Sequence record: NC_103192.1
Direction: 5' to 3' (one strand)
Length of the DNA: 64,000 nucleotides
Source of the DNA: a phage
How positions within the stretch are numbered: the stretch's first letter is position 1; every line of letters starts with the position of its first letter. Shown piece by piece: positions 33,698-64,000 of the stretch. The notes beneath the pieces are model-generated. The model worked only from the letters and a program-made list of their open reading frames with translations, ran no database searches and was not told the DNA's origin. The position numbers and the translations under genes were made by a program.

Positions 33698-34459
33698 CAT
33701 TATGTTCAAGGTGGTTCGCAAGGCCACCCCCGCACCTTTACGTGCTGCTGCATGTCCCCATGCAGATCAGACTATATCTTCACACTTAGTGTGTCTACCA
33801 TTTCGAGTGTCATCAGCTTACACCCTACACCGCTACATTCATCACGGTTAGTCGTTAGGCATTTCGTAACAGAACTCGTAATCATAGTTATTAGGTGCAC
33901 CACGTTTCAGGATAGCAGATATTCTTTTTCTATCTATTCCTAAAACATCAGCACAACATCTCAGACTCTTAAAGTGAATAACCACACCAGTTAATTTGTG
34001 GGTGGCTTTCACCCCGTGACATCTTGTGTAAAAAGCATAACAGTTGTTGTCGTATCCTTCTTGAGTATTGTCTGGGCAAGCTCCCCACTCAAGGTTGTAT
34101 ACGCTGTTATCTTTCCTGTTGTCACCTTTGTGCTTAACATATGGTAAATTGTCTGGATTTGGTAAAAACGCTTCAGCAACAAGTCTGTGAACCCTTAGGC
34201 AAACAGTCTTTTTGTTCTTGCGTATCCTGACAAGACGGTAACCTGTGTTTATCTCTTCCCACGAATGAATAATTCTTTCATTTTCGTATCGGGTGCAATA
34301 AACATTGCCCATCTCGTCAATTTCATAACCTTCAAAATCACGAATTTGTTTTCTCATTTCAGGACTCCTCTTAGTCAGGAGTTCTGTTACGTTTAGCACG
34401 GGATTGTCCGTTCTGGAGTTTCCCCGTTTAGATAGATTTTACATGAGCAGTTATAGTTT
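33698..34459 (-). mobile_element. Group I intron 2 in nrdD (contains HNH endonuclease ORF)
   Basis: Exon 2 ends ...SMG (codon ggt, terminal U), exon 3 resumes CRSF, restoring the conserved PMGCRSF block; 3' end carries AAGATATAGTC P7-like element and a P9 hairpin. Confidence 0.65.
33848..34399 (-). CDS. HNH homing endonuclease (intron-encoded)
   Basis: VKHKGDNRKDNSVYNLEWG HNH_3-type motif; N-terminal FEGYEIDEMGNVY module. Confidence 0.7.
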   Translation of the reverse strand: MLNVTELLTKRSPEMRKQIRDFEGYEIDEMGNVYCTRYENERIIHSWEEINTGYRLVRIRKNKKTVCLRVHRLVAEAFLPNPDNLPYVKHKGDNRKDNSVYNLEWGACPDNTQEGYDNNCYAFYTRCHGVKATHKLTGVVIHFKSLRCCADVLGIDRKRISAILKRGAPNNYDYEFCYEMPND

Positions 34460-34759
34460 ACCCATGCTTGTTACTTTGCCGTCTGTTGAACCTGTCACTT
34501 TTCTATTTAGCGGTACAGATACGAAGTCGGGATAAATCCGCTCTGCAGAGCATTCCAGAGCCAACCGTTTCAAATCATAGTTAGGATCCCCAGGATTCAT
34601 GTTGACACCCTCTTCTAGGAAGAACAGCACTTTAGGGAACACAGGTGTGATACGTTCTTCACCAAGACCCATTTTGTGGACTTTCAAGTAATTTTTGGTA
34701 ATCATTCTACCAAAGACCGAGGTATCCAGTCCTAAACTTAATGTGATGAATGGAGTCTG
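34460..34759 (-). CDS. nrdD: NrdD, exon 2
   Basis: QTPFITLSLGLDTS...ITPVFPKVLFFLEEGVNMNPGDPNYDLKRLALECSAERIYPD aligns with E. coli QTPFVTFGFGLGTS...AVFPKLVFAIRDGLNLKKGDPNYDIKQLALECASKRMYPD. Confidence 0.75.
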
Positions 34760-35556
34760 CTGTCTCCTCCCTGTGTTTCCACAGGGCCAGACTATCTCTT
34801 ACTCTACTTCAATAAGATAATAACCCTTTATTGTGAGATGCTTACCTTCGGCATTTCCTTCGATAGCCCTATGAACGTTACCTACGTTCAAATTTAAGGC
34901 TTTTGCACAGGCATAGAGTGAAGGATATTCACCAACCAAGGTTTTCCCTTTGTATGCCTGCACTTTCCTATAGCACTTACCTGGACAAAGTCCTGTTCGG
35001 AAAGCATGTCTCTTATTATCTTCCGGCAAAACCCACTCTAGGTTAGACGGATGATCATTCAATGTATTGCCATCTTTATGATTCACTTCCCAGTTTTCAG
35101 GGTCTTCTGGGACATCTGGCAAACAATACAAGGCAACAACCCTTGAGGTTTGGATTCGAATCTTTTTACCTTTGTGGTTGAAAGAGTACATATAACGGCG
35201 TTTAACATGCTTGTTACCTTTTCCATAACCTCCCCACAATATTGGGTGTAGCATTCCACGTTTTCCGTATACGTTTCCAACCTCATCAATCACATAGTTT
35301 GACTCTTCACCATTAAGAATGATCTTTTTCATAGAGCCTCTCCATTTCGAAGTTAGTATTTCAACTAACCCCTACACTACTTGGTTCAGAAATGTTTGTC
35401 AAGCATCTCTGCCTTTCGTTAGTCGTTACAACCGTTCCAACTCCTGTAAGAACTAGTCACGGGATTGGCGTAGCTTTCGCCTTAGCGTTCCCCGTTAGCC
35501 GGATTTACCGACCCCTCTTATGAGGTTAGGAGAGTTTTACAACGGCCAGTTTGTTA
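34760..35556 (-). mobile_element. Group I intron 1 in nrdD (contains HNH endonuclease ORF)
   Basis: Exon 1 ends ...SVNG then in-frame stop; exon 2 starts QTPF; intron 3' end has GAGATAGTCTGG plus hairpin; 5' part has GTTGTAACGACTAACG core-like element. Confidence 0.65.
34799..35332 (-). CDS. HNH homing endonuclease (intron-encoded)
   Basis: VNHKDGNTLNDHPSNLEWV HNH_3-type motif. Confidence 0.7.
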   Translation of the reverse strand: MKKIILNGEESNYVIDEVGNVYGKRGMLHPILWGGYGKGNKHVKRRYMYSFNHKGKKIRIQTSRVVALYCLPDVPEDPENWEVNHKDGNTLNDHPSNLEWVLPEDNKRHAFRTGLCPGKCYRKVQAYKGKTLVGEYPSLYACAKALNLNVGNVHRAIEGNAEGKHLTIKGYYLIEVE

Positions 35557-36417
35557 ACCGTTGACAGAAGTTAACGTATTGATTTGATAGAGCAAAGTCT
35601 GCATGCTGTCAAATACGTCTTTATCTGTCATTTGCATTGCAACAGTCTCAGCATCTGGCAACCAATGTTCCTGGCAAAATTTAAGGTTCTTCTCATAGGT
35701 CGCTTCAGCATACTGTGCCAGATAATGATCAATATGACTCATGGTCTGACCGCCATATTGAGCACTAGCTACTGCACTAGAGATTTGGCTAAGGATTGTT
35801 GTTGCAACCCCTATTGACTTCGGCTTACTGACATGGGCGTTACCAATGTTGAATCCGTTTTCCAACATATCTGGATAATTTACCAAACAACAGTTTGTTA
35901 ACGGACTGATCAAATAGTCAAGATCATGCACATGGATGAAGCCTTTGTTGTGCTCTTCGGAGACACGGTCTGGCAGGATCTGTGTTGATGCAAGGTGTTT
36001 GCTAAGGATGCCTGCAAGCAGGTCACGATGAGTATGCACATGATTAGTAGGCTTATTTGCGTTTTCTTTTGTAAATTCATCACAAGTACGATCCAAGAAG
36101 CCACTAATATCGGCAAGCAGTTTTCCACCTGCCTCTCTGTTATTATCTCTTGTCTGTCTATACTGGATGTATTCTCTGGCTGCACATTTTAAACCCATAT
36201 CCATAAGAGCATCTTCAACAAGGATATGGATATTTTTTACAGAGATCGTGCACTGGTCAGTTGGCAGATTGTTGGCAACAACTTCATTAACCGCACAGGC
36301 AATCCGGTAAGCTTCTTCTTCAGTATGTCCAGACTCAAGTAAGGCGGACTCTGCCGCCTTGATCACCTTAATTCCGTTATAGACCTCTTCTCTACCGTCC
36401 CGTTTTACAACTTTCAC
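35557..36417 (-). CDS. nrdD: NrdD, exon 1 (ATP-cone and N-terminal core)
   Basis: MKVVKRDGREEVYNGIKVIKAAE ATP-cone start; NENANK...RDLLAGI, HDLDY, PKSIGVAT blocks match E. coli NrdD. Confidence 0.8.
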
Positions 36418-36692
36418 TTTTTCTCTCCAAAACCATTCTTAACAAAAGAGATGAAATCATCGGCACCGCCTATATGGGCACTTTCAAGATTACTTTCTAA
36501 GAAGATCTGCGGCAACGTTCTGGGTACGATTGGACTGCACTTCTCAATAAGCTCTTCTTTTGTGTAACCCTCGCCAAGTGTCTTATATACAAAAGGCAGA
36601 CCTTTACTGACTGCAAATTCTTTTGCTCTTACACAATGTGGGCAGTTATCTTTACCGTAAATAATAAAGAAAAAAGATTTTTCACAACTCAT
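36414..36692 (-). CDS. Glutaredoxin/NrdH-like redoxin
   Basis: CPHC active-site motif near N-terminus, 92 aa, directly downstream of nrdB. Confidence 0.65.
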   Translation of the reverse strand: MSCEKSFFFIIYGKDNCPHCVRAKEFAVSKGLPFVYKTLGEGYTKEELIEKCSPIVPRTLPQIFLESNLESAHIGGADDFISFVKNGFGEKK

Positions 36693-36695
36693 GTA

Positions 36696-37784
36696 TTAAA
36701 ACTCCCAAATTTCTTCTTCAGCGTCGTTAACAGTTGTGTTGACTCGGTAGTCAGTGTTCGACATTTCTTGGTTCGCCGTCTGTTGCAATGAAGGTTTCAT
36801 CCACACCTGCATAAACGGTAGCGGGTCCTTTGTTGGCGGCACAAAGTCTTTGTCGATGTTGTAGTAATCATAAATCGGTGAGCAGTTATAATCAACCCAT
36901 TCTTTAAGTAATGGTGAGTTAAGACCTATAATTGCTCTTCCTTCGCTGAAAATATAGTCACTCCAACCGTACTCCTTGGTCCGCACTTCATCAAGAATTT
37001 CTTTTAACTCACTTTTAATCTCAAGAAAGCTTTGCTCCCATGCAGGATCATCAAGCAGGATATCGATGATAGCAAAATCACCTTTCGAATGCAGCATTTC
37101 ATCAAGCATAATTTTTTGAACAAGTTGTGCCACTTGAACAAAAATACCTTGCTCAGCTACTGCAAACGTACATGCAAAACTTGCAATAAACTCAATGCTT
37201 TCTAGAGCTAAAAGTGCAAAAAGTGCTCTAAGGATACATTTCCGTACAACATCTTCTTCAACACTGGAAGGATCCAGTCGGTATTTTGCACCAATAACCT
37301 CAAGCTCTTGCATATATTTGACAATAACTCCAGACCTGCTCAGCACGTTCTGGTTTTCCTGAATCTCTTCTATAATCTCACGAGCATTAGGAAGGCATTG
37401 TCTAACAATCTCTGAGTAAGTTAGTGCATGAAGAACCTCAATCTCAGACTGCTTCATCAACAAGGTGAAAAGCTCACTATTGGTGATAAATGGTGAAAAC
37501 AGACAAATGATAGATCTTGCTGCAACACTGTCTGCCTCCCATTGCCACATCAGTGTCTGCACCATTACATCGTAAGTTGACTTTGAGCATGTTACGAAAT
37601 CCGAAATAGACTGTGACAAATCTACTTCGTCCTCTGCCCAATCTTGTTCTTTTTGTTTTTTGTATAGTTCAAACAGCTGTGGGTACTTTTTGTTAATAGA
37701 GTCGTACATCCCCATCTGCTGTCCTAAAAACAGCGGATAATCACCAGTTTTATGAGCAGTGTTCTCAGTATTAAATACAGCCAT
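36696..37784 (-). CDS. nrdB: Ribonucleotide reductase class I beta subunit
   Basis: Size, position after nrdA, ferritin-like helical sequence with conserved Glu/His-containing blocks. Confidence 0.75.
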   Translation of the reverse strand: MAVFNTENTAHKTGDYPLFLGQQMGMYDSINKKYPQLFELYKKQKEQDWAEDEVDLSQSISDFVTCSKSTYDVMVQTLMWQWEADSVAARSIICLFSPFITNSELFTLLMKQSEIEVLHALTYSEIVRQCLPNAREIIEEIQENQNVLSRSGVIVKYMQELEVIGAKYRLDPSSVEEDVVRKCILRALFALLALESIEFIASFACTFAVAEQGIFVQVAQLVQKIMLDEMLHSKGDFAIIDILLDDPAWEQSFLEIKSELKEILDEVRTKEYGWSDYIFSEGRAIIGLNSPLLKEWVDYNCSPIYDYYNIDKDFVPPTKDPLPFMQVWMKPSLQQTANQEMSNTDYRVNTTVNDAEEEIWEF

Positions 37785-37823
37785 TATTCTACCTCTAAAA
37801 TGGGGCCGAAGCCCCTTTTTAAA

Positions 37824-40139
37824 TTACAGTGCACAACTTTCGCAATATGGATCTTCAACTGAACTATCTGCAATCAAAGGATAGTTCTTTCTGGTTTCAT
37901 CTTCAGCCTGTTTCTTCGCGTGAAGCTCCTCTGTCAAAGAGTCACCAGCACCAACCCGAGAGTTTAAGTAATACCATGTCTTCATCCCGAATTTAGTAGC
38001 ACGGATAAGATACCCAAGCTGCTCCTTCATTGAAATTTTACCATCTTTCAACTTGGTGTAATCAATATATAGGTCAGCACTGATTGCCTGTCCTGTGAAT
38101 TTTTGAATCACAGCATACATATCAATCATGTCGTTAGTATCAACGTCCCAAGCCGAGGTATAATACTCTTTCAGTTCATCATATTCAGGAACGATAAACA
38201 GCACCTGCCCTTGTGGTGACTTTTTAAAGATAATGTGTTCACGGACAGGATAAACCCCGTTAGTGGTGTTTGTTGCCAACGAAGAGCTTTCATTAGGCAT
38301 GTATGCTTCAAGAACGCTATTACGTAGTCCACCGTTTTCAATAATTTCTTTACGTAACCCTTCCCAATCCTGCTTAAGAGAAGGATCTTTCACCACACTA
38401 TCGACCTCTTTGTTATAAGTGTCGATTGGTAACCAACCATCTGGGTATTTTGTTTTATGCATCCACTCGCAGACACCACGCTCTTTTGCCAATCGTAAAC
38501 TTGCCTTATGCAAGCTGTAGCTGTGGAGCTCTGCAAGATCGTGAACAAGCTGTTTACTTTCAGGAGATCCGTAAGCAACCTTGTGGCTGGCAATAAAATG
38601 TGCAACATTGGTAAGGCCAACCCCGATGGATCTGCGTTTTTTAACAGTGCTCTCCATATTTTCATACGGATATGTCATGATTTCCATAACATTGTCAATC
38701 ATAAGCACAGTGTAGTATGCAACATCCTCATACTCCTCTGGGGTAACCCTTCCCGCTACAAGAGATGACAGGAAGCACAATGCAACTTCGCCATCATCAA
38801 CATCGTACTTGAAGATATTACGCATATCTGAATAGCCTTTTGTCGGGAGGGCTATTTCTGCACACAGGTTACTTGAATAGATTACATCTTTAAAAGGTGT
38901 ATGTCTATTCATCTCATCTGTCCAGTACACATACAGTCTGCCTACCTCGGTACGCTGCGTGATCAGTTCAACAGCAAGGTCTCTAGCACGGATCCATGTT
39001 TTAGGAATGCTGTCATCTTTAGCGATACGATCAACCTCTGCATCAAACTCCTCCATAGACATGGTGAAGATACCCTCGTGCAGTTGAGGTGCGTGCTTAT
39101 AAGAAACAAGCATCCAATCTAAATTCTTAGCCACACGGTTGATAAATGATCTATTAATACCTATAGAGTAGTCCATGGTGTTGATTCTTTTTGAAGCAAC
39201 AGTCATAGGGTTTCTCAAACGGATTAGCTCATCAATCTGCGGGTCTAGTGCAAGGAATGATACCGTTGCCGAACCTCCGCGTGATTGTTGTCTATTCTCC
39301 TTAACCCCGGCATCAATGCCTCGATAATATGGAATCTTACCCATGTGTTTAATAGTGTTACCACGAACACCATCGCCTGCAGATCTTGAGGATAAGTAGT
39401 AGCCGATACCTGCCTGGTTAACCGTCATTGTGTACGCAACTTCACGTGCCACACCAATGGATTTTGCTGTATCGTCAGCTTTTATTACACAACAAGATGC
39501 ATACCCTGTCTTACCTGTGCGCAGCCCGTTTAAGTACGGTGTCGGGGCATTGATCTTTAAGTCGGACAGATAAGTGTATAATTTTACAACATCGTTGATA
39601 CGACGTTCTTTCGGCATATTCTTCATGACAGCCATTGCTATCCCCATAAACATCATCTGGGGAGATTCAAACAAGGTGTCTTTAAGAGTATCCTTGATCC
39701 CGTATTTGTCGCGAAACTGTTTAAGGACTGCATAGCCATAACCGAGATCTTTACTGTGGTCAATAACAGCGTCTAAAGTGTTTAGCTCGGTAAAGCTATA
39801 ACCCATATCCTCCCAATAACCTTTCTCAACCATGTCATTGTAAAATGATGGTAAGGAAGGGATCTTTGTAAACCCTCCAAAAGCCTCTTTATAGATCTGA
39901 CCAATAAGAACACGACCAGCCATACGGGAATGTGCTTCGTCTTTACGGCTAACACAAGAGTCTATAATAGCTTGGTTAACTTCTTTGGTTGTACATCCAT
40001 CATACAACCGCTTGTAGGCATCCAGTGCAATATGTGACCAATTGCCGTTACCATCGTCACCGAAAATAGCTGCCTTATTTAAACGTTCTGGATCGAATGC
40101 CACTTCACATCCGTTGCTTTTAATTACCTTGGTGATCAA
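37824..40139 (-). CDS. nrdA: Ribonucleotide reductase class I alpha subunit
   Basis: 771 aa; N-terminal ATP-cone; active-site SSNLCAEIALP; C-terminal CESCAL cysteine pair. Confidence 0.9.
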   Translation of the reverse strand: MITKVIKSNGCEVAFDPERLNKAAIFGDDGNGNWSHIALDAYKRLYDGCTTKEVNQAIIDSCVSRKDEAHSRMAGRVLIGQIYKEAFGGFTKIPSLPSFYNDMVEKGYWEDMGYSFTELNTLDAVIDHSKDLGYGYAVLKQFRDKYGIKDTLKDTLFESPQMMFMGIAMAVMKNMPKERRINDVVKLYTYLSDLKINAPTPYLNGLRTGKTGYASCCVIKADDTAKSIGVAREVAYTMTVNQAGIGYYLSSRSAGDGVRGNTIKHMGKIPYYRGIDAGVKENRQQSRGGSATVSFLALDPQIDELIRLRNPMTVASKRINTMDYSIGINRSFINRVAKNLDWMLVSYKHAPQLHEGIFTMSMEEFDAEVDRIAKDDSIPKTWIRARDLAVELITQRTEVGRLYVYWTDEMNRHTPFKDVIYSSNLCAEIALPTKGYSDMRNIFKYDVDDGEVALCFLSSLVAGRVTPEEYEDVAYYTVLMIDNVMEIMTYPYENMESTVKKRRSIGVGLTNVAHFIASHKVAYGSPESKQLVHDLAELHSYSLHKASLRLAKERGVCEWMHKTKYPDGWLPIDTYNKEVDSVVKDPSLKQDWEGLRKEIIENGGLRNSVLEAYMPNESSSLATNTTNGVYPVREHIIFKKSPQGQVLFIVPEYDELKEYYTSAWDVDTNDMIDMYAVIQKFTGQAISADLYIDYTKLKDGKISMKEQLGYLIRATKFGMKTWYYLNSRVGAGDSLTEELHAKKQAEDETRKNYPLIADSSVEDPYCESCAL

Positions 40140-40387
40140 TTTGCTTCCTCCACTTCACTAACGTATTTATCAAGGCAGGTATCAGTATCTTGCTGGATAA
40201 AAGTATCCTCTTCTACAGAGATATTTATAATTTTACCTGTATACTCGTCATAATAAACATCATCATACATTTTAATATCGTTTGTCAGGCCGTTGAACCA
40301 AAGCCAACCAACATATTCTGCCCGACTTGCAAAACCAAGATCCTTCCACTTGGAGTTATGGCTCATCTTCACCACCTTAGCTTTCAA
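40136..40387 (-). CDS. Hypothetical protein
   Basis: 4-nt overlap with nrdA start. Confidence 0.4.
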   Translation of the reverse strand: MKAKVVKMSHNSKWKDLGFASRAEYVGWLWFNGLTNDIKMYDDVYYDEYTGKIINISVEEDTFIQQDTDTCLDKYVSEVEEAN

Positions 40388-40877: not shown

Positions 40878-40936
40878 TATTATAGATTATCTGATACTAT
40901 TAGTCAACACAAAAGTTACCTATCGCTGTGATAGGA

Positions 40937-42120: not shown

Positions 42121-42121
42121 T

Positions 42122-42715: not shown

Positions 42716-42720
42716 TGTTC

Positions 42721-44480: not shown

Positions 44481-44495
44481 TCATACTATGCGTTA

Positions 44496-53805: not shown

Positions 53806-53817
53806 CCGGCTATGTTG

Positions 53818-54531: not shown

Positions 54532-54545
54532 TAAAAGGCCTCCGC

Positions 54546-55307: not shown

Positions 55308-55315
55308 AAGTGTCC

Positions 55316-56598: not shown

Positions 56599-56698
56599 TT
56601 TGTCCCTTTATTCTGCCACACAAATAACCCAGTGTCAACACTTGAAATTAACAAAACCGTTAGGTATACTATCATTCAAATTAAAACGGAGGGTTACT
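56599..56698. promoter_or_regulatory. Divergent promoter region between the minus-strand and plus-strand blocks
   Basis: Plus: TTGAAA, 17 nt, TATACT ahead of 56699; minus: TTGACA-containing sequence ahead of 56598. Confidence 0.5.
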
Positions 56699-57109: not shown

Positions 57110-57116
57110 GGGATGT

Positions 57117-57671
57117 ATGAAATACTTTGTAACAAGCGACACACACTTTCTCCACCAGCGGGTAATGGAGTTCGACTCATGTCAAAAACACAGATCTCAG
57201 TATGATCACAATCTTGACAGTATGAATGCGGGAATCATCACCAAGTGGAACTCTGTTGTGTCACCTGCAGACACTGTGTTTCACTTGGGGGATATTGCGT
57301 GCACTAATGATAAGAATATCAACAAATTGCTTCCAGATGTTCTAAATATGTTGAACGGACATATTATTCTTGTTCGTGGTAACCATGACACAAGGACGAC
57401 TGTCAGAATTATGAAAGAGTTCGGTCATGAGGTTGTGGATTATTACGAGCTTCGCCACAACAAGAATTTGATCTGTATGAGCCATTACCAGTTTGCAACG
57501 TGGAACAGAAAGCATCACGGATCAGTCCAACTGTTCGGTCATGCTCACGGAACCACACAACAGTTGTTTGGCAGGCAGTTTGATGTCGGTTGGGATGTGT
57601 GGGGGAGACTCTTACCATTAGAAGAGGCATACCGTGTTGCAATGAGTTTTGCTATTGACAGCGGGGAGTAA
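57117..57671 (+). CDS. Calcineurin-like metallophosphoesterase
   Basis: SDTHF, GDIAC.ND, GNHD motifs in canonical order. Confidence 0.65.
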   Translation: MKYFVTSDTHFLHQRVMEFDSCQKHRSQYDHNLDSMNAGIITKWNSVVSPADTVFHLGDIACTNDKNINKLLPDVLNMLNGHIILVRGNHDTRTTVRIMKEFGHEVVDYYELRHNKNLICMSHYQFATWNRKHHGSVQLFGHAHGTTQQLFGRQFDVGWDVWGRLLPLEEAYRVAMSFAIDSGE

Positions 57672-57718
57672 TCTCCGCTATTTTAAAGAAAATTACCACA
57701 CAAGGAGAATCAGGAGAT

Positions 57719-58069
57719 ATGAAAGATGGGGATAAACTGCCATATCTTAAAGTCCCCCTTGGTATACTGTCTATGTCAAAAGTTTTGAATGACACAACTG
57801 GAGAGGTTGTTGTTCTTGACTTGTATGATAAGATCGTATACTGCTACCTGCACAACTGGTATAAGCTTGGAGGAAATTCACGCTTCACACCCAGCACAAG
57901 GAAAATTGCAGCAGATATTGGGATAAAGAAAACAAAAGCAGCAGCGTGCGTTAAAACTTTAGAATGTGCAGGGGTGGTTGAAACATCCACACAAGGGAGA
58001 GGCAAGAGATGCACATTTTCCAAAGTTTTGCCACCAGAAGAAGTTATTCGAATGTCAACAACTGGTTAG
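57719..58069 (+). CDS. Putative HTH DNA-binding protein (candidate initiator/regulator)
   Basis: RKIAADIGIKKTKAAACVKTLECAGVVE helix-turn-helix-like segment; iteron array immediately downstream. Confidence 0.4.
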   Translation: MKDGDKLPYLKVPLGILSMSKVLNDTTGEVVVLDLYDKIVYCYLHNWYKLGGNSRFTPSTRKIAADIGIKKTKAAACVKTLECAGVVETSTQGRGKRCTFSKVLPPEEVIRMSTTG

Positions 58070-58144
58070 ACCAGTAAAAACTTAAACATCTGTACTATAA
58101 GGATTTGTATGTTTTATGTTCGCTCTGGAACAGAGGTTAGTAAC

Positions 58145-58225
58145 TGTCCGTGATACGGACACTACTGTCCGTCACGCGGACACATCTGTCCGTAATACGG
58201 ACACTAACTGTCCGTGATACGGACA
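58145..58225. repeat. Four 17-bp palindromic iterons (TGTCCGTGATACGGACA and variants) at 21-22 bp spacing
   Basis: Copies at 58145, 58166, 58187, 58209. Confidence 0.85.
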
Positions 58226-58229
58226 CATA

Positions 58230-58345
58230 AAGAATATAACTAAAATAACTAAATAATAAAAAATAAAAGATCTAGTACTTATGGTACTAAAGTACATATA
58301 CTTAACTTATGTAGAATATACTAGATCCTAAGTACCATGTTTTAA
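58230..58345. other. AT-rich tract with short palindromes (candidate DNA unwinding element)
   Basis: Over 80 percent A+T immediately after the iterons; agtacttatggtact palindrome. Confidence 0.45.
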
Positions 58346-58374
58346 ATTTATTACTTATTATGGGTAGTGTCGGC

Positions 58375-58725
58375 CCTTCATTGGCACTCGCCTACGAGGG
58401 GCGAGATGCCGGGCCTCCATAGTGCACACAATAACAGAAGTGCATACATGCAGGACTGTTAACATGTGTGGGAGCGAAGCGATAGCGCAGGCCAAAGGCC
58501 GAGCACTAATGTGGACCACCGACGAAAGCTTGCCAGCGCCGGAAGGAGTCGGTTGAGAGCCTCCCGCGCGAGTTTGGTTAAAGTTTATGTGTGGAAACGG
58601 ACAGGAAGGCTCCTAAATCGCCACACAGCTGCGTAAACTATATCAAGTAAGGCAATCGCACCAGTTTGATAGAAAAGCTCGTTACAAAGCGATACAGTGA
58701 GTTTTTCTATAACTTGAAGAGGAGA
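58375..58725 (+). ncRNA. GC-rich structured non-coding segment (candidate structured RNA or long leader)
   Basis: About 350 nt with multiple complementary GC-rich stems (ctcgcc/ggcgag, ggcc aaa ggcc); no credible ORF. Confidence 0.3.
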
Positions 58726-58730
58726 CAGCT

Positions 58731-59309
58731 ATGAGTTCACGCAAAGATGACCGCGAAAAGATTGCAAAACGTTATCAGAATGAAGAACAGATGGAGAAAA
58801 CTTTCAAGTGGAAGCCGGGTTTCCAGCGTAATCATTCTAACGCTCGTGATCGTAAGCATCCGGATAAGTGGCTAACACCGCCAAAGGATGGCATGCAGGT
58901 TGGTGATGAGAAGGAGCTATCGCCCGGAAAAGATGGCAACTACATTCGCACTAAGGACGCTGGTCCAAAGGATGACAGCTATCTTGTAGATAAGGTTCTT
59001 GATGGTATTGATGTAGATGTTGACACTACACGGAACTTTTTTCTTGGGTGGTATCGCACAGGTTTTTTCGACATCAAGGCCATTCGTCGTGTTTGTGATA
59101 TTAAAAAGTCTGCATATGATGACGACTCGTTACATCGCACCCTGAGACAATATTCAGAAAGATATGGTCATCCGGTTATCACTCTTGACGATGTTAACGA
59201 AGTGATGTATCATGCAGAGGTTGTTGCAGGCAGATTTGGTGATGCATATCTTGATATCCTTTCTGCAAACGATGAGGTAATGTTGAATAAGATTTACTAC
59301 GAGCGTTGA
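58731..59309 (+). CDS. Hypothetical protein (192 aa)
   Basis: SD gaggagacag. Confidence 0.5.
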   Translation: MSSRKDDREKIAKRYQNEEQMEKTFKWKPGFQRNHSNARDRKHPDKWLTPPKDGMQVGDEKELSPGKDGNYIRTKDAGPKDDSYLVDKVLDGIDVDVDTTRNFFLGWYRTGFFDIKAIRRVCDIKKSAYDDDSLHRTLRQYSERYGHPVITLDDVNEVMYHAEVVAGRFGDAYLDILSANDEVMLNKIYYER

Positions 59310-59319
59310 GGAGAGCTTA

Positions 59320-59508
59320 ATGAACAATCCGGTAGCAAAGAATTGTAATAAGTTCAACAAGTCTGCAATTCACACTGACAGGAAAAAGAGCTGGTCACCG
59401 GACATTGACGAGGAGCTTGAGAATTACTTTGAAGATCTGGTTACCAATGCAGGTGAGGTTGCGATTAAAGAATACGCAGACAGGAGGGATAAGGCCGGAA
59501 TCTGTTGA
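59320..59508 (+). CDS. Hypothetical protein
   Basis: SD ggagag; 10 nt after upstream stop. Confidence 0.45.
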   Translation: MNNPVAKNCNKFNKSAIHTDRKKSWSPDIDEELENYFEDLVTNAGEVAIKEYADRRDKAGIC

Positions 59509-59584
59509 CAAAAATAATGTTACCTGATAAGATCTGCAATATGATGTGATACAATTTTAACTTACGAGGTCTACAGGTAATGCT

Positions 59585-59827
59585 ATGTTTAAGGTTAAGC
59601 TCGTTTTCCGTTCCATGAATGAGGATTATTTAGAAGATGAAGGTGAATTTCGTGCACTAGATGATGCAATAGATTTTGCCAACGACTTAGCTTGTATGAA
59701 TACTGGTTATGGTTTATGTTGTTGGGATGGTGGTGTTCAGATTGGTGATAGCAAGATCTTCTACTTCTACCCTGAGCCCGATAACAAACAAATTAAGTAT
59801 GTTTTATTTATTTGTGCTTTACAATGA
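59585..59827 (+). CDS. Hypothetical protein
   Basis: Promoter-like TTGACA at about 59505. Confidence 0.45.
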   Translation: MFKVKLVFRSMNEDYLEDEGEFRALDDAIDFANDLACMNTGYGLCCWDGGVQIGDSKIFYFYPEPDNKQIKYVLFICALQ

Positions 59828-59864
59828 GGTTGTTTTCGTGTATCATGATGAATATCCAATTTAA

Positions 59865-60125
59865 AGATGAGTTTGATGGCTTTATCTCCGGATGCTTTGA
59901 AACAGGGTTCGGAGAAGACTGAGTTCCCCTTAGAGGTCTTGATAGTGCACCACACTTAAAATGGTAGGGGCAGCCAGCACATGACGATGTGACCCCAGCC
60001 AACCTGTAATAAGGTCGAGCCTGAGAGCGGTAATGGGTATAGCTGGAAAACCCACTCGTTGGGTCTTGTTGGTCCAGGACGCTGGGCAAGTCGCAGGGAA
60101 TACCACCCTGCGGCGAACTTGACAA
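59865..60125 (+). ncRNA. Structured non-coding segment (candidate small RNA)
   Basis: GC-rich hairpins (gcaggg aatacca ccctgc; cccc...gggg); only low-complexity overlapping ORFs. Confidence 0.25.
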
Positions 60126-60175
60126 TCAGTATTTGCCGTGATAAAATCCACCTATCACGTGATAATGGAGGAAAC

Positions 60176-60514
60176 ATGGCGGATACAACTAAAAAGCGTC
60201 GCCGTAGAGGCAGACCTCTGAAAGAGGAGTCCAACGCCATTCAGCTAGAGAAGAACATTCTTGATATGAAGGAATCTTTTATAGCGATGGTTCCAGAAGC
60301 TCACAAAGTTTTAAGAGAGCTGATGTTGGACCCGAAAACCAAACAAAATATTCGTCAAAGCATTGCAGAGTATGTTCTTGATAAGGCAGACCGAATGCAG
60401 GAAGAATATGATGAGATGTTTGGTGAAGAGGAAGAGGTGGTAGTAGAAGAGGCTGAAAAACCAGCACCTTTTATGCCATTTACCACAGAAATACAGCCTG
60501 TTGGCAATAGTTAA
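60176..60514 (+). CDS. Hypothetical protein with basic N-terminus and acidic C-terminus
   Basis: Promoter TTGACA, 17 nt, GATAAAAT at about 60120-60150; SD ggaggaaac; KKRRRRGRP motif. Confidence 0.5.
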   Translation: MADTTKKRRRRGRPLKEESNAIQLEKNILDMKESFIAMVPEAHKVLRELMLDPKTKQNIRQSIAEYVLDKADRMQEEYDEMFGEEEEVVVEEAEKPAPFMPFTTEIQPVGNS

Positions 60515-60523
60515 AATATTTTC

Positions 60524-60552
60524 TTGACAAACTTTGCCTAACAGTGTAATAT
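60524..60552 (+). promoter_or_regulatory. Sigma70-like promoter for the tRNA cluster
   Basis: TTGACA, 17 nt, TAATAT. Confidence 0.55.
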
Positions 60553-60600
60553 TATAAACATGGTCTCCCACCTTTTCTGGCGGCTCAGGTGTAAAAGAAA

Positions 60601-60675
60601 GCCACCCAGTGCCCTGTTAGCTTAGTGGATAAAGCAGCGGCCTTCTAAGCCGTTGACACTGGTTCGAGTCCAGTA
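60601..60675 (+). tRNA. tRNA-Arg (anticodon TCT)
   Basis: Hand-folded cloverleaf: acceptor GCCCTGT/ACGGGGT, anticodon loop CTTCTAA, T-loop TTCGAGT, CCA encoded. Confidence 0.7.
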
Positions 60676-60815
60676 CGGGGTGCCAAGTTCTTTTTAATGT
60701 AGCTTACTTTAGCAGAGTAAATCTTCGGCAAGTGGCGGTAACCACTTTACCGATACCTCATAGTTAGTGGTGAGAACACTAGCTATTTTAAAAAGAATTT
60801 AAATATTAGTATTTA

Positions 60816-60903
60816 GGTGAGTTAATTCCGTAGGGGTAGCGGGGCAGACTGTAAATCTGTTATCATTGCGATTCGGGTGGTTCGACTCCATCACTCACCA
60901 CCA
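60816..60903 (+). tRNA. tRNA-Tyr (anticodon GTA), long variable arm
   Basis: Acceptor GGTGAGT/ACTCACC, anticodon arm CAGACTGTAAATCTG as in E. coli tRNA-Tyr, T-loop TTCGACT, CCA. Confidence 0.7.
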
Positions 60904-61017
60904 AATTTATATTTTTAAATGCATAAATCATACAGATAATGGCATTGATATTTATCGTCGTTTATACTAGTCACTAACTGCTCGAAAATCAGTGTCATTA
61001 TCAGTATTGTTTATAAA

Positions 61018-61108
61018 AGAGGGTAGGGAGCAATGGTGCTCAAGCGGTCTTGAAAACCGTCCCGTTGAGGATGACTCGATGATGGTTCGATTCCATTATC
61101 CTCTGCCA
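61018..61108 (+). tRNA. tRNA-Ser (anticodon TGA), long variable arm
   Basis: Acceptor AGAGGGT/ATCCTCT, anticodon arm CGGTCTTGAAAACCG, T-loop TTCGATT, CCA. Confidence 0.7.
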
Positions 61109-61206
61109 TATTGTTGACTATGTAATTAAGCGAAAGCCGGAAGCAGAACCGGATTATCAAATGTTACAGTCGTCATCGCCGACTAGCAACATGGTCAACA
61201 TACTGA

Positions 61207-61305
61207 GCTAGGTAAGCCCTTTGGCAAGGGCGAGGATTTTTAATCCTGAAAATAGACGAGGTAGTCGTTGAATACATAGGTGGTTCGATTCCATCACCTA
61301 GCACC
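61207..61305 (+). tRNA. Atypical tRNA-like element (type II shape, irregular anticodon arm)
   Basis: Acceptor GCTAGGT/ACCTAGC, D-arm GCCC/GGGC, T-loop TTCGATT, long variable arm; anticodon region is either a 5-nt loop or a 4-bp stem with TTTTTAA loop; no CCA. Confidence 0.35.
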
Positions 61306-61310
61306 TTTTT

Positions 61311-61386
61311 GCTGATGTAGCACAATTGGTAGTGCAATTGATTTGTAATCAATAGGTTGCAGGTTCAAGTCCTGCCATCAGCACCA
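61311..61386 (+). tRNA. tRNA-Thr (anticodon TGT)
   Basis: Acceptor GCTGATG/CATCAGC, anticodon loop TTTGTAA, T-loop TTCAAGT, CCA. Confidence 0.75.
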
Positions 61387-61387
61387 T

Positions 61388-61462
61388 GGCCCTGTAGCTG
61401 GAAGGTTCAAGCAAGCGACTCATAATCGCCAGACGGTGGTTCAATTCCACCCAGGGCCACCA
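61388..61462 (+). tRNA. tRNA-Met or Ile2 (anticodon CAT)
   Basis: Acceptor GGCCCTG/CAGGGCC, anticodon loop CTCATAA, T-loop TTCAATT, CCA. Confidence 0.75.
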
Positions 61463-61473
61463 AATAATAAATA

Positions 61474-61550
61474 CTCCGCGTAGCTCAGCTTGGTAGAGTG
61501 CCTGATTTGGGATCAGGAGGTCGAGTGTTCGAATCACTCCGTGGAGACCA
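61474..61550 (+). tRNA. tRNA-Pro (anticodon TGG)
   Basis: Acceptor CTCCGCG/CGTGGAG, anticodon loop TTTGGGA, T-loop TTCGAAT, CCA. Confidence 0.75.
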
Positions 61551-61596
61551 CTTTCAGTTATACTTTAAACATATACAAACAAAAGGAACCTTTAAA

Positions 61597-61866
61597 ATGT
61601 ATACACTTAAAATTGTAGAGCGTGTAAATCCAACCCATACTGTAGATTTTCGTGACGATTTCAATCCTCTGGCTGTAAATCTTCGAGAGTCATATCATGA
61701 ACTCAGCTGCGATGCAGTGGTGGTCTTTTTTGAAGACAACTCTGAAGGGGCGGTAGCTTGTGTTGTTGATAGTGAGCAGAAGTTTTATATTTACAGAGAT
61801 GTGGATGCTTACTTGATGAATGAGAATGCGGTTACTGTCAGAATCATCCACCGAGTGCCTCGATAA
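61597..61866 (+). CDS. Hypothetical protein (89 aa)
   Basis: SD aaaggaacc; start placed downstream of tRNA-Pro. Confidence 0.45.
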   Translation: MYTLKIVERVNPTHTVDFRDDFNPLAVNLRESYHELSCDAVVVFFEDNSEGAVACVVDSEQKFYIYRDVDAYLMNENAVTVRIIHRVPR

Positions 61867-61914
61867 GTATTAGTCTCCTTTTAGTTAGTTTCGATCTATT
61901 TAGGTTACTCAATT

Positions 61915-61952
61915 TTAACCCGCCCCGTTAGCTGTATAGCTGCGGGGTTTTT
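61915..61952 (+). terminator. Rho-independent terminator
   Basis: ccgccccgttagctgtatagctgcgggg hairpin followed by a T-run. Confidence 0.6.
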
Positions 61953-61971
61953 TCGTTTCTGGAGCCTTAAA

Positions 61972-62370
61972 ATGATTTCAGTTTTAACATGGCTGGGTAG
62001 GTATAGAGGGATCATAAAAGGTTTAGTTTTTGCAGCTGCTCTAGGCACAGCATACCTGGGGGCCGTGTATTGGTTTAACTCTAAGCTTAACGCTGCTTAT
62101 CAGGAAGGCGTAACAGCAACAGATTTGAAGTGGGAGCAGATCCTTGACCAGCAACAAAAGCGAGCCGACAGGATTAAAATGGGACATGCCGAGGAGGTGA
62201 AAAACCTTGAAAAATCCCTTTCTGACTTACAGGATAAGCTGGAGGCAGCTAAGATGGCAGGTAAAGAAAAGCAGATTATTTACCTCCAATCACCTGAAGG
62301 TAAGAAGTCAACACTCCCTGATCAGCTTATAGATATTTATAATGAGAGTATCAATCAGGAGGGTCGATGA
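61972..62370 (+). CDS. i-spanin-like protein (Rz-like)
   Basis: N-terminal TM segment plus coiled-coil periplasmic domain; overlaps downstream lipoprotein gene. Confidence 0.55.
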   Translation: MISVLTWLGRYRGIIKGLVFAAALGTAYLGAVYWFNSKLNAAYQEGVTATDLKWEQILDQQQKRADRIKMGHAEEVKNLEKSLSDLQDKLEAAKMAGKEKQIIYLQSPEGKKSTLPDQLIDIYNESINQEGR

Positions 62371-62654
62371 GAGTTGCTACACTATTTATTGTGTGCTTGT
62401 TATTATGTGGGTGTGCAACCAGTGTTGAGAAAGAATACAAGATTGACCCTCCAGATGTAGGAAGGTTGATTGTTAAACCCCCAGAAGGTGCTATGAAACC
62501 ACCTGCTAAAGCTATGCCTTTGAAGAAAGGTGCGCCAGATGCAGTAAATTCTGGCATTATGAGGGATAATAATCTGTCTTGTAGCAATGATAGAGCTAAA
62601 TTGATCATTTTGCAAGACTATATTAGAACACTTTTTCCAAAGGAGAGAGGTTAA
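62367..62654 (+). CDS. o-spanin-like lipoprotein (Rz1-like)
   Basis: Signal with lipobox-like LLCGCAT; proline-rich mature part. Confidence 0.55.
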   Translation: MRVATLFIVCLLLCGCATSVEKEYKIDPPDVGRLIVKPPEGAMKPPAKAMPLKKGAPDAVNSGIMRDNNLSCSNDRAKLIILQDYIRTLFPKERG

Positions 62655-63079
62655 TGTCTAAGATTTACGGACCGTGTTCTGAAAAGCAGAAGATGATCCT
62701 CGAAAACGATGCAGATATTTTGGTAATCGGCGGTGCCGCAGGGTCTGGCAAGTCGTTCCTCTTGCAGTTGATGCCACTTAAAATTATTGATGACCCCCAC
62801 AGCTCTGTGGTTATGTTCCGAAGAACAACCCCACAGTTGGAAGGTGAGGGTGGGCTATGGCCTAAAGCAGTAGCTATTTATAGCGATCTGCCTGAAAACA
62901 TTAAGCCAAAGTTCAGAGAGAAGGATCATAAGTTCATTTTCCCACGGTTTGATCCGGGCACTGGCAAGTGGGATAGAAGCAAAAAGGGAGCTGTTGTAAA
63001 ATACTGCCACATGGAGTATGTACAAGATAAGCTTAACCATCAAGGGCTTGAGTACACCATGGTTTGCTTTGATGAGGGT
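62654..63079 (+). CDS. terL: Terminase large subunit, exon 1 (ATPase N-terminal part)
   Basis: Walker A GGAAGSGKS, Walker B MVCFDEG; reading frame then hits a stop where the intron begins. Confidence 0.7.
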
Positions 63080-63398
63080 TAATTTGTAGCTCTCGTAAAA
63101 CCTCCCTAATTGCGGGGAAATCTTTATTATTGACACCACCAACCTGTCATGGTAACATGACAGAGGCTTCGAAGAGAGATCGAAGGTATGGTAACAGTGT
63201 GTTAATTTAGATAATCCGCAGCGAAGCATCCGAAAGGATGAACGTTCAACGACTAGTCGAAAGACGTAGAATCAAGCGATTCGAAACGGGAGGATAAGCG
63301 GTTGTTGTCGCTTATAAGATATAGTCTGGTCTGCATGGAGACATGCAGCTGCCTGAAAATGGCGGGGCAAGACTAGCGACCTTGCCCGAACATAAACG
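63080..63398 (+). mobile_element. Group I intron (ORF-less) in terminase large subunit gene
   Basis: GTTCAACGACTAGTC and AAGATATAGTC core elements (P7-like), P9-like hairpin; exon 1 ends on U of ggt; frame resumes TQFEWEQIDYLMSRL. Confidence 0.6.
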
Positions 63399-63716
63399 AC
63401 GCAATTCGAATGGGAGCAGATAGACTACCTAATGTCTCGTCTGCGATCTCAGTCAAAGTATCCATCAAGAATGGTTATCAGCTGTAACCCCGACTCAGAA
63501 CACATGCTTGCCAAACTGATTAGGTGGTGGTTGGACGATGAAGGGTATCCAGATCCGGAGAAATGTGGTAAGAAAAGATATTTTATCCGACGCGACGGTG
63601 AATTTATCTGGGGAGACTCTAAGGAAGAGTTAATAGAGAAATACACCACGGTTAACGGACTAGGTGTGGAGATCAAGCCAAGACCGTTGTCATTCTCGTT
63701 CATAGGCGCAACCATT
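63399..63716 (+). CDS. terL: Terminase large subunit, exon 2
   Basis: Continues the ATPase domain (RMVISCNPD region) in frame after the intron; ends at a stop followed by a second intron. Confidence 0.6.
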
Positions 63717-64000
63717 AAATGATAGTGGCTTCGTGCAGAAATGCACGTCGAATAACTTCGTTAATTGCTGGAAAATCCTTTATGAAAGGACAATCAGCAG
63801 CCAAGCCTGAATATTCAGGAAGGTTCAACGACTATCCTGAGAGGGAGTAGGGCGCAAGCTTATGGCGCTCGAAAAGCGAAGCACCCTGAGATGGGTGGTG
63901 ATATAGTCTACTCTGCATGGTAACATGCAGCGGCACGTAATGGTGCGGAGGGTGGTGTTGCGACCACCCTTGAATATAAGGATTCGATAATCCTGTCTGC
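63717..64000 (+). mobile_element. Second group I intron in terminase gene (3' end beyond window)
   Basis: GTTCAACGACTA and GATATAGTC elements and a P9 hairpin closely resembling intron 1 and the nrdD intron. Confidence 0.55.

Follow-up and report, generated by a model that had tools for sequence, protein, structure and literature searches.

The resemblance between the 3' ends of introns in nrdD and in the terminase gene terL of an rV5-like coliphage (Vequintavirus) is, in all likelihood, a family signature: the introns concerned, referred to here as I2 (nrdD), IA and IB (terL), are old and widespread phage introns of the T4 type (subgroup IA2-like), each of which would have reached its site by independent homing. 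The same 3' end is found in T4 introns and in hundreds of phages and thus marks an old, known family instead of a recent jump. The window analysed, i.e. the whole stretch of 64,000 nucleotides, carries two group I introns in nrdD (I1 and I2) and two more in the part of terL that it includes (Table 1). Joining of the exons yields an uninterrupted NrdD of 707 amino acids and a continuous N-terminal part of TerL. The biology is ordinary and already known: the terminase introns of rV5 have been published (Kropinski et al. 2013, PMC3606486) and terL is annotated in its GenBank record (NC_011041) as a join of three pieces.

Table 1. Exons, introns, endonuclease genes and 3' modules of nrdD and terL in the window
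Feature	Position	Strand	Basis and remarks
nrdD exon 1	35557..36417	-	ORF list; ends ...TSVNG
nrdD exon 2	34460..34759	-	splice reconstruction; 100 codons, ends ...KVTSMG
nrdD exon 3	32735..33697	-	ORF list and splice reconstruction; starts CRSFLSKY...
nrdD intron I1 (797 nt)	34760..35556	-	RF00028 match, P1, terminal G
HNH homing-endonuclease gene in I1 (177 aa)	34799..35332	-	Pfam HNH_3
nrdD intron I2 (762 nt), T4 td/nrdD-like, ORF in P6 loop	33698..34459	-	RF00028 match, P1, FFH2 allele, VEcB same-site intron
HNH homing-endonuclease gene in I2 (169 aa from ATG)	33848..34357	-	Pfam HNH_3 below cut-off and NUMOD-like match
I2 3' module	33698..33780	-	sequence pattern, module alignment, family covariation
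terL exon 1	62654..63079	+	splice reconstruction; ends ...MVCFDEG, Walker B
terL intron IA (319 nt, without ORF)	63080..63398	+	RF00028, P1, rV5 same-site copy
IA 3' module	63316..63398	+	sequence pattern, module alignment
terL exon 2	63399..63715	+	splice reconstruction
terL intron IB (266 nt, without ORF)	63716..63981	+	RF00028, slur16 intron-less allele
IB 3' module	63898..63981	+	sequence pattern, module alignment
terL exon 3 (start)	63982..64000	+	splice reconstruction and slur16 allele; continues beyond the window

IB and IA match the Rfam model RF00028 over its full length (92.7 and 84.2 bits, respectively, above the gathering threshold of 50 bits), whereas I2 (32.9 bits, E 2e-5) and I1 (27.7 bits, E 7.5e-4 to 5e-3) score below this threshold; endonuclease ORFs of about 0.5 kb interrupt the model in these two. 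The nrdD introns are predicted to be group I introns on the basis of P1 with its U-G pair, the terminal G, the restoration of the frame and the alignment to T4 introns. As read from the sequence, the 5' splice site in all four introns follows a U that pairs with a G of the internal guide sequence in P1 (CAUGGGU^/GCUCAUG in I2, CAACGGU^/GCCGUUG in I1, GAGGGU^/GCUCUC in IA and CCAU^/GUGG in IB, with ^ marking the splice site), a terminal G is the last base of each intron and exact excision restores the host reading frame. Excision of I1, as placed by P1 and the terminal G, gives ...SVNG^QTPF..., and that of IA, with its terminal G at 63398, gives DEG^TQFEW. The I2 junction is confirmed to the base by the intron-less allele of FFH2 (AGCATGGGT^TGC), and so is the IB junction by the intron-less allele of slur16 (ACAAT^ATTCGAT, against the predicted ACCAT^ATTCGAT). 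These predicted group I introns are probably self-splicing.

The HNH protein of I1 matches Pfam HNH_3 (E 6e-7) and, weakly, an I-HmuI NUMOD-like domain. That of I2 has an HNH_3 match of 20 bits, below the cut-off of 24.8, together with a NUMOD-like match, and is 27-29% identical to the HNH proteins of I1 and of IB in rV5; the 3' end of its gene overlaps the 5' strand of P7 (ATGCCTAACGACTAA). I1 belongs to another sub-type with a short 3' tail devoid of P9.1 and P9.2, and is therefore not a member of the sub-type carrying the shared module.

The strings on which the earlier note based its claim of similarity between the nrdD and terminase introns are found exactly at 33780-33724 on the minus strand (I2) and at 63316-63353 (IA) and 63900-63955 (IB) on the plus strand; each forms the 3' part of a group I intron (P7', P9, P9.1, P9.2 and the terminal G), and the similarity is real. 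The pattern GATATAGTCTNNTCTGCATGG occurs three times, against 0.00 expected from 100 shuffles. In I2, P7' (AAGATATAGTCT) is followed by P9 with a GNRA loop, P9.1 (GCACGTAAAGGTGC), P9.2 (GGTGG..TTGCGAA..CCACC) and TTGAACATAATG, which ends in the terminal G. The same order of P7', P9, P9.1, P9.2 and 3' end is seen in IA (GCCTGAAAATGGC; GGCAAG..CTAGCGA..CTTGCC; GAACATAAACG, for the last three) and in IB (GCACGTAATGGTGC; GGGTGG..TGTTGCGA..CCACCC; TTGAATATAAGG). From P7' to the terminal G, I2 and IB are identical at 70 of 85 positions (82%), while the corresponding values are 74% for I2 and IA and 68% for IA and IB. Near-identity over about 55 nt, as originally described, hence applies to I2 and IB, and in IA extends only over the first 35 nt or so (P7'-P9). 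Confinement of the similarity to P7, which the earlier note had named as the observation that would speak against its claim, is not what is found, as the similarity continues past P7 across P9, P9.1 and P9.2 as far as the 3' splice site; such a criterion is, however, too weak, because the whole module beyond P7 is conserved across the family.

This family is characterised by a conserved catalytic core together with a conserved 3' domain, which consists of P7' (GATATAGTCT), P9 (CTGCATGG-NN-ACATGCAG, with a GNRA loop), the short hairpins P9.1 and P9.2 and a GAACAUAA-G end. A P9.2 with a (T)WRCGA loop, followed by a GAAYAU..G end, is present in I2, IA and IB as well as in the T4-like td, T4 nrdB and T4 and F2 nrdD introns, and the latter four share the same architecture of P7'-P9 and tail. 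The 163-nt 3' region of I2 matches 844 phage records, which include phages of Escherichia, Pseudomonas, Salmonella, Vibrio and Bacillus and others, with the matches located in td, nrdD, DNA polymerase and terminase genes; the exact P7'-P9 pattern (26 specified bases) occurs in more than 120 IMG/VR viral contigs, which is a lower bound. I2, IA and IB can be aligned with the T4 introns from end to end, including the segment of the putative extra hairpins P7.1/P7.2 between P7 and P3' (ACGACTA-hairpin-GTAG-hairpin-CGAAA). A homing-endonuclease ORF is optional in a peripheral loop, being an HNH gene in the P6 loop of I2 and missing from IA and IB of the window. The 3' module probably has a structural role and, going by the established biology of group I introns, would be retained by selection on ribozyme folding and on the choice of the 3' splice site. 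P9.1 and P9.2 do show covariation, with double changes in 9 of 17 pairs in an alignment of 47 sequences, as would be expected if unrelated introns had independently arrived at the same sequence under structural constraint; yet such convergence is extremely improbable, as nucleotides outside the helices and in loops are invariant, the elements follow one order and the cores are homologous and match RF00028, which goes far beyond what structure by itself requires, and the alignment with the T4 introns is complete in length. Of the claim that one intron lineage spread between nrdD and the terminase gene, the part that stands is that one homologous family occupies non-homologous genes, and new genes must therefore have been colonised at some point in deep time; that the spread was recent and took place within the genome finds no support.

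An intron recently copied within this genome, from nrdD to terL or in the reverse direction, by ectopic transposition, whether through reverse splicing or through illegitimate repair of a double-strand break, would account for the P7'-P9 shared exactly and the similar tails in three introns of one genome, and also for I2 and IB being each other's best non-same-site tail match among the matches listed. Such copying is nevertheless very improbable. The P7'-P9 core is invariant in the family, as seen in the T4 introns, the phage records and the viral contigs mentioned above. Pairwise alignment of the intron segments, which the earlier note had suggested, reveals no high identity along the whole ribozyme: I2 and IB are 48%, 69% and 82% identical in the 5' half, core and tail, respectively, far below the 96-99% observed between same-site copies in different Vequintavirus genomes; tail identity in this comparison is 70% for I2 and IA and 66% for IA and IB. 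Over the 5' half and the core, introns of other phages resemble each of the three more closely than its companions in the same genome do. For the 5' half of I2, identity is 66% with the F2 nrdD intron and 64% with that of T4 nrdD, against 42% with IA, and a BLAST search with this half gave matches to T-even nrdD and td introns and none to a terL intron; IB is nearest to T4 nrdB (61%), with 36% between IA and IB. Core values follow the same pattern for I2 (F2 nrdD 80%, T4 nrdD 76%, IA 55%), IA and IB being 54% identical, and the core of IB is nearest, among the matches listed, to that of contig L119 (84%), an intron which another phage carries at this terL site. IA and IB rank 75-79 of 81 among the matches listed. 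Bootstrapping gave L119 as the nearest neighbour of IB in 214 of 300 replicates and I2 in 18 of 300, among the matches listed, and IA was paired with I2 or IB in no replicate.

The variable columns were compared with a background of IMG/VR contigs carrying an exact P7'-P9 match; the sample being selected by that match and limited to 120 contigs, the background distributions are approximate. Among these, the I2-IA (57%) and IA-IB (49%) values lie around the family median of 52%, IA being no closer to I2 or IB than random family members are. IA is of a different sub-lineage, resembling td and nrdB: among the matches listed, the variable columns of its tail are nearest to contigs L022 (73%) and L064 (71%) and to T4-like td (67%), the tail being nearer to T4 td than to I2 or IB, and its whole module is 80% identical to that of td.

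I2 and IB, with 73% in the variable columns, fall in the top 1% of pairs among the matches listed, although I2 and an nrdA intron of an unrelated contig (L020), and IB and the unrelated L004, each reach 71%. In the tail beyond P9 they are reciprocal best non-same-site matches (84-86%, by a margin of 2-5 nt, among the matches listed), the only such pair within the genome. They also have in common a sub-type with a long P7.2 loop (AAGCTNATG), P9.1 (GCACGTAAWGGTGC) and the P9.2 stem GGTGG/CCACC, and are therefore somewhat closer relatives within the T4-type family. Given the reciprocal tail match, its rank and the shared P9.2 stem, some closer link is real, and it goes beyond family conservation alone, through membership of one sub-lineage or through a 3' domain exchanged long ago.

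An exchange in which the P9.1-P9.2 tail was swapped between I2-type and IB-type introns in an ancestral co-infection or genome, leaving mosaics, is unlikely, though it has several points in its favour. The tail of L119, the closest match to the IB core, is only 55% identical to that of IB, and the tail of IB has its best matches in I2 and VEcB (73%, among the matches listed), with only 69% identity in the core. I2, in turn, is most similar to T-even nrdD introns in its 5' half and core, and crossing over would be well served by the 31 invariant nucleotides of P7'-P9. Shuffling between T4 introns, comparable to such an exchange, was reportedly described by Bryk and Belfort in 1990. The P9.1 sequence GCACGTRAWGGTGC, however, is a recurrent type, found in two unrelated contigs (L046, L074) as well as in the terL intron of J2-1 at another site, so that the specific evidence shrinks to the 5-bp P9.2 stem. 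A change in the L119 tail, or unequal rates in a segment of about 50 nt, would explain the incongruence just as well, and the long P7.2 loop in the cores of both introns is consistent with simple common ancestry within a sub-family.

Independent homing of family members, the preferred reading, agrees with the distribution of the introns across genomes. I2 and IB are distributed independently: rV5 has IA and IB and lacks I2, and in the VEcB genome I2 is present and no terL-IB-like intron was found. FFH2 has I1 and lacks I2, slur16 lacks IB, and TH18 has IB and lacks IA; 241Ecol014PP carries I2, with a gap of about 308 nt and no annotated ORF at the I1 site. The presence/absence comparison among related genomes, likewise suggested earlier, thus reveals copies that fail to co-occur (rV5, VEcB, slur16, FFH2), and divergent hosts already carry the tail sub-type (that of IB in TH18, that of I2 in VEcB). 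An HNH gene lies inside IB in rV5, HdK5 and TH18, and HdK5 has ORFs in both IA and IB; in the window, the endonuclease genes of IA and IB may have been lost or never been present. Each intron would keep to its own site and spread or be lost independently; spread would occur when phages infect together and endonuclease-driven homing carries an intron from one copy of the gene to the other.

I2 itself bears the mark of such an event, its signature of acquisition pointing to an external nrdD donor, which speaks against copying within the genome. At this nrdD site VEcB, a Justusliebigvirus of another phage subfamily, carries an intron that is 85% identical to I2 in nucleotides, with an endonuclease 91% identical in amino acids, whereas the flanking nrdD exons are only 63-74% identical. 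Compared with the intron-less FFH2, exon identity is 78-85% beside the I2 site and 97-100% beyond about 250 nt. The higher identity of the intron than of the exons and this co-conversion gradient indicate that I2 arrived by homing between nrdD genes; a divergent nrdD donor would have delivered it to the Vequintavirus nrdD, with flanking exon sequence dragged along.

Among known systems, the rV5 terL introns occupy the same two sites as IA and IB and are about 96-98% identical to them, but IB of rV5 carries an HNH endonuclease gene, while IB of the window, as IA, has no ORF. The nrdD intron of the Justusliebigvirus/Phapecoctavirus group (e.g. VEcB) has the I2 site (AGCATGGGT^...^TGTAGAAGTTTC) and the same tail sub-type, in a phage that differs in subfamily and in its nrdD exons, as noted above. 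The T4 td intron (I-TevI; subgroup IA2) has the same order of elements as I2, and in both introns the ORF lies in the P6 loop, with its 3' end next to ...ATGCCTAACGACTA (P7); the 5' segment ATCTATCTAAACGGGGAA...GACAATCCCGTGCTAAA is common to both, and the td 3' module (GAGATATAGTCTGATCTGCATGGTGACATGCAG...P9.1...P9.2...CTGAACATAATG) is 74% identical to that of I2. It differs in its host gene (thymidylate synthase), in its endonuclease (GIY-YIG, against HNH in I2) and in the sequences of the P2 region, P9.1 and P9.2. The T-even nrdD (sunY) introns of the T4 and phage F2 type share the host gene with I2 and have an identical internal guide sequence and J1/2 (GCTCATG TAAAA), and the stretch TAACGACTAACCGTGATGAATGTAGCGGTGTAG is identical between the F2 intron and I2. 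Their insertion point follows AUGAGU and lies 12 codons upstream of the I1 site, whereas I2 follows AUGGGU at MG^CR, and their endonuclease ORF lies downstream of P9 (P9.1 region) instead of in the P6 loop.

Four group I introns (RF00028) were identified with Rfam in the window, namely I1 and I2 in nrdD and IA and IB in the large terminase gene terL, and a fifth was not found within the 64-kb window either at the gathering threshold or by E-value search. In BLAST comparisons with phage genomes, 33000-37000 (nrdD) and 61500-64000 (terminase) are 95-97% identical to the rV5-like coliphages (Vequintavirus). The gathering threshold returns the two terL introns only (92.7 bits for 63706-63930 and 84.2 bits for 63070-63348), while the nrdD introns, seen by E-value search, fall below it (32.9 bits, E 2e-5, and 27.7 bits, E 7.5e-4) because an endonuclease ORF interrupts each of them and depresses its score. 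Intron boundaries were placed on the basis of P1 pairings, terminal G residues and reading frames. Joining of the exons in silico gives an unbroken NrdD of 707 aa (...SVNG/QTPF... and ...SMG/CRSF..., the slash marking the junction) and a continuous N-terminal part of TerL (...CFDEG/TQFEW... and ...GATI/FDNP...). The junctions of I2 and IB are base-exact, as in sister phages the intron-less nrdD of phage FFH2 reads AGCATGGGT/TGC and the intron-less terL of phage slur16 reads ACAAT/ATTCGAT.

Table. Introns of nrdD and terL and other features located in the window
Feature	Coordinates	Strand	Length	Remarks
nrdD intron I1	35556..34760	-	797 nt	HNH ORF 35332..34799
nrdD intron I2	34459..33698	-	762 nt	HNH ORF 34357..33848
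Guide and J1/2 of I2	34441-34459	-		GCTCATGTAAAA
3' string in I2	33780-33724	-
Substitution cluster flanking I2	33598-33697 and 34460-34560	-		relative to FFH2
terL intron IA	63080..63398	+	319 nt	no ORF
Extension in P5 region of IA	63125-63205	+	~80 nt	two additional hairpins; insert in Rfam alignment
3' string in IA	63316-63353	+
terL intron IB	63716..63981	+	266 nt	no ORF
3' string in IB	63900-63955	+
ORF immediately 3' of nrdD	31732-32667	-	311 aa
tRNA-like gene in tRNA cluster	61207-61305	+	99 nt

I1 belongs to another sub-type, with its HNH ORF between P3' and P7' (P8 region) and its P9 (CCCTGTGGAAACACAGGG) followed by just 9 nt to the terminal G, without P9.1 and P9.2; it is inserted at SVNG/QTPF, 12 codons 3' of the T4 nrdD intron site. 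In phages WalterGehring and HdK5, IA is longer by ~560-590 bp and contains an endonuclease ORF.

The likeness of I2, IA and IB was brought up by an earlier note, which ascribed three near-identical 3' strings to recent spread of one intron lineage within the genome. All three strings match the window exactly (Table), each being the 3' domain of one of the introns I2, IB and IA. A 21-nt pattern that they have in common is present three times in the window and never in 100 shuffles. In each domain the P7' strand is followed by a GNRA-capped P9 hairpin and then by the small hairpins P9.1 and P9.2, and the terminal G lies in a GAACAUAA-G end. The presumed roles are docking for the GNRA loop of P9, peripheral stabilisation for P9.1 and P9.2, and positioning of the terminal G for the GAACAUAA-G end. 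Over the full length of this module, identity is 82% (70/85) for I2-IB, 74% for I2-IA and 68% for IA-IB. The likeness thus continues past P7 and through P9 to the splice site, and the observation itself holds.

The module was also found in all four T4-type introns fetched for comparison (T4-like td, T4 nrdB, T4 nrdD and phage F2 nrdD). It reads GAGATATAGTCTGATCTGCATGGTGACATGCAGCTGGATATAATTCCGGGGTAAGATTAACGACCTTATCTGAACATAATG in T4-like td and GTGATATAGTCTGGACTGCATGGTAACATGCAG...CGAACATACGG in T4 nrdB, and the T4 and F2 nrdD introns have P7'-P9 and the end as in the module, their endonuclease ORF being an insertion 3' of P9. In a search of phage records, the 163-nt 3' part of I2 matched 844 records from phages of Escherichia, Pseudomonas, Salmonella, Pectobacterium, Vibrio, Bacillus, Yersinia, Klebsiella and others, the annotated host genes among the matches listed including td, nrdD, DNA polymerase and terminase; helicase, nrdB and RNA polymerase beta come in addition from queries with IA and IB. 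Exact copies of the pattern GATATAGTCTNNNCTGCATGGNNACATGCAG turned up in more than 120 contigs of IMG/VR (4-310 kb in size), a number that is a lower bound, and in nearly all of these contigs the P9.1/P9.2/GAAYA architecture follows. In an alignment of 47 sequences, from which metagenomic tails wrongly cut by a simple regular expression for the intron 3' end were excluded, the P9.1 and P9.2 stems covary (double changes in 9 of 17 pairs), and nucleotides in the loops and joining segments are conserved. The module is a hallmark of the classical T4 introns. Since the T4-type P7'-P9 (~30 nt) and the overall P9.1/P9.2 tail are kept across hundreds of unrelated phages, near-identity over 40-55 nt is uninformative on recency; in T4-type introns such information is carried only by the variable stem positions and the remaining ribozyme, and the practical value of the present comparison is one of caution.

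Columns fixed by the family pattern were removed from the 47-sequence alignment and identity was calculated for all 1081 pairs (median 52%, 95th percentile 65%, 99th percentile 73%). I2-IA reaches 57%, a value equalled or exceeded by a quarter of all pairs, and IA-IB, with 49%, lies under the median; the tail of IA is closer to those of the comparison introns L022 (73%) and L064 (71%) and of T4-like td (67%). The pair I2-IB (73%) is in the top 1%, in the company of I2 with L020, an nrdA intron on a 142-kb contig (71%), and of IB with L004 (71%). I2 and IB have the P9.1 hairpin GCACGTAAWGGTGC in common, which was considered as a derived marker of recent kinship and rejected because it is combined with other P9.2 stems in the unrelated contigs L046 and L074 and is present, at another terL site, in the terL intron of Pseudoalteromonas phage J2-1. 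The T4-nrdB-type P9.1 GTTCATAAGAGAAC is likewise recurrent (at least 14 contigs). Ongoing gene conversion between I2 and IB inside genomes was rejected as well: same-site copies are 96-99% identical across genomes against 82-84% for I2-IB, and the IB tail of phage rV5, which lacks I2, matches I2 just as well (84%) as the IB tail of the window does.

The remaining ribozyme was compared by pairwise alignment of the 5' half (splice site to P6) and the core (P7 to P7'). The 5' half of I2 is nearest to the nrdD introns of F2 (66%) and T4 (64%), with 48% for IB and 42% for IA, and its core gives the same order (F2 80%, T4 nrdD 76%, IB 69%, IA 55%). The 5' half of IB is nearest to T4 nrdB (61%) and its core, within the metagenomic sample, to L119 (84%), an intron of another phage at the same terL site (3' exon ATACGATAACCC...). 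For the IA core the nearest relative in that sample is L098 (76%), and neither I2 nor IB is among its top 14. When core and tail of 82 unique family members were aligned with MAFFT, IA and IB ranked 75-79 of 81 with respect to each other. Among introns from other sites, the nearest neighbour of IB in 300 bootstrap replicates was L119 in 214 and I2 in 18, that of I2 was L074 in 101, and that of IA was I2 or IB in none. In BLAST, the 5' 102 nt of I2 match copies at the same site and introns of td and of T-even nrdD; terminase introns are absent from the matches, those of the near-identical genome HMD-6 included. Vequintavirus same-site copies are 96-99% identical between genomes. Separately, bases 7-52 of IB (P1-P2) have 87% matches in the Vequintavirus relatives HMD-6 (PQ505080.1, 134951-134995, no feature annotated) and HeinrichReichert (MZ501073.1, 71360-71404, annotated as DNA polymerase), which suggests another related intron elsewhere in these genomes, beyond the window.

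Most Vequintavirus genomes, such as FFH2, lack I2, which is present at the same site in Phapecoctavirus records and in VEcB, a Justusliebigvirus. A comparison of the window with VEcB gives 85% nucleotide identity for I2, 91% identity for its HNH protein and just 63-74% for the flanking nrdD exons. Relative to intron-less FFH2, the exons show 85% identity in the 60 nt upstream of the I2 site and 78% in the 60 nt downstream, climbing to 97-100% past ~250 nt from the site. The substitution cluster (Table) includes amino-acid changes, the window reading SKYSDPVT where the FFH2 sequence differs. The flanks of I2 thus carry the classical signature of co-conversion, as left by homing that an endonuclease drives from a divergent nrdD donor, and not the signature of transposition out of terL. 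A co-conversion signal was also sought at the IB site, where comparison with slur16 gives one adjacent silent change, too little to be informative. The introns are distributed independently among the phages compared: rV5 has IA and IB without I2, VEcB has I2 without an IB-like intron, slur16 has IA without IB, and TH18 has the IB site occupied without IA; 241Ecol014PP has I2 and, where I1 would lie, a ~308-nt gap without an annotated ORF, and HdK5 carries ORFs in IA and IB alike. The presence/absence polymorphism that the earlier note had proposed to look for is there, and its pattern, independent for each intron, speaks against recent intragenomic copying. As the IB of TH18 and the I2 of VEcB have the same tail sub-type, the link between the I2 and IB tails predates these phage lineages.

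Recent intragenomic spread is accordingly strongly disfavoured by the family-wide module, the greater closeness of the IA tail to td, L022 and L064 than to I2 or IB, the relatives of the 5' halves and cores in other phages, the homing of I2 from an nrdD donor and the independent distribution. I2, IA and IB all fall within the T4-type (IA2-like) family of phage introns, their likeness being its conserved 3' domain. I2 and IB represent one sub-type, with a long P7.2 loop AAGCTNATG and the GCACGTAAWGGTGC type of P9.1, to which the L020 nrdA intron and the F2-type nrdD intron of T-even phages also belong, and IA represents a sub-type resembling td/nrdB. Each intron would have been kept and spread site-specifically by homing, with loss of the endonuclease gene over time, as in IA and IB here.

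Two further readings are mechanistic. The guide sequence and J1/2 (GCTCATG-TAAAA; guide RNA form GCUCAUG) are identical in I2 and the T-even nrdD introns (1412-1450 in both T-even loci, L001 and L002). The insertion sites differ, after AUGAGU in the T-even introns and after AUGGGU for I2, and both 5' exons pair with the shared guide. This would fit guide-directed site switching by reverse splicing, not by endonuclease, but is no more than suggestive; about one such guide-pairing hexamer is expected by chance in a 2.1-kb gene. An old exchange of 3' domains at the invariant P7'-P9 could account for the incongruence between core and tail similarity among IB, L119 and I2. Taken jointly, a site change of the nrdD introns by reverse splicing and 3'-domain recombination in the I2/IB lineage seem rather unlikely; if true, the former would provide a natural case of a group I intron changing site by its own guide sequence, and the exchange between I2 and terL-IB would mean mosaic ribozymes in nature.

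Homology of the three T4 introns was reportedly described by Shub et al. in 1988 (reference B71 of PMC2988022) and has been textbook knowledge since. Both the kinship of the introns in T4 td, nrdB and nrdD and the patchy distribution of introns in T-even phages, driven by homing, are long established (PMC2988022). The rV5 terminase gene was published in 2013 as three segments with a homing endonuclease in one intron (PMC3606486), and the annotation of NC_011041 gives rV5 terL as a join of three pieces. Since the split rV5 terminase and the T4 intron homology were already in print, the earlier note correctly saw a known family signature and over-interpreted it. Current understanding is unchanged, the findings from T-even phages being repeated in rV5-like phages. 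For annotation, the analysis yields base-exact exon junctions of the four introns in nrdD and terL of a Vequintavirus, wide variation among relatives in intron presence and in possession of an ORF, and a clear co-conversion tract indicative of intron homing between phage subfamilies.

Other features were observed nearby. The 311-aa ORF next to nrdD combines treble-clef zinc-finger repeats (DUF4379, E 6e-12) with a T5orf172/MUG113 domain (GIY-YIG-related), and is probably a free-standing homing-endonuclease-like gene inserted beside nrdD. The tRNA-like gene is assigned a four-base anticodon 'atcc' (tRNA-???) by ARAGORN and scores 35.5 bits with the Rfam tRNA model; the same call is annotated in HdK5 and slur16, and the gene could encode an intron-containing or otherwise unusual tRNA. 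About 20 GenBank records (MG0656xx) under the name 'Campylobacter phage', with C. jejuni as host, match this rV5-like region at 96-97% identity and look like mislabelled or contaminant Vequintavirus genomes.
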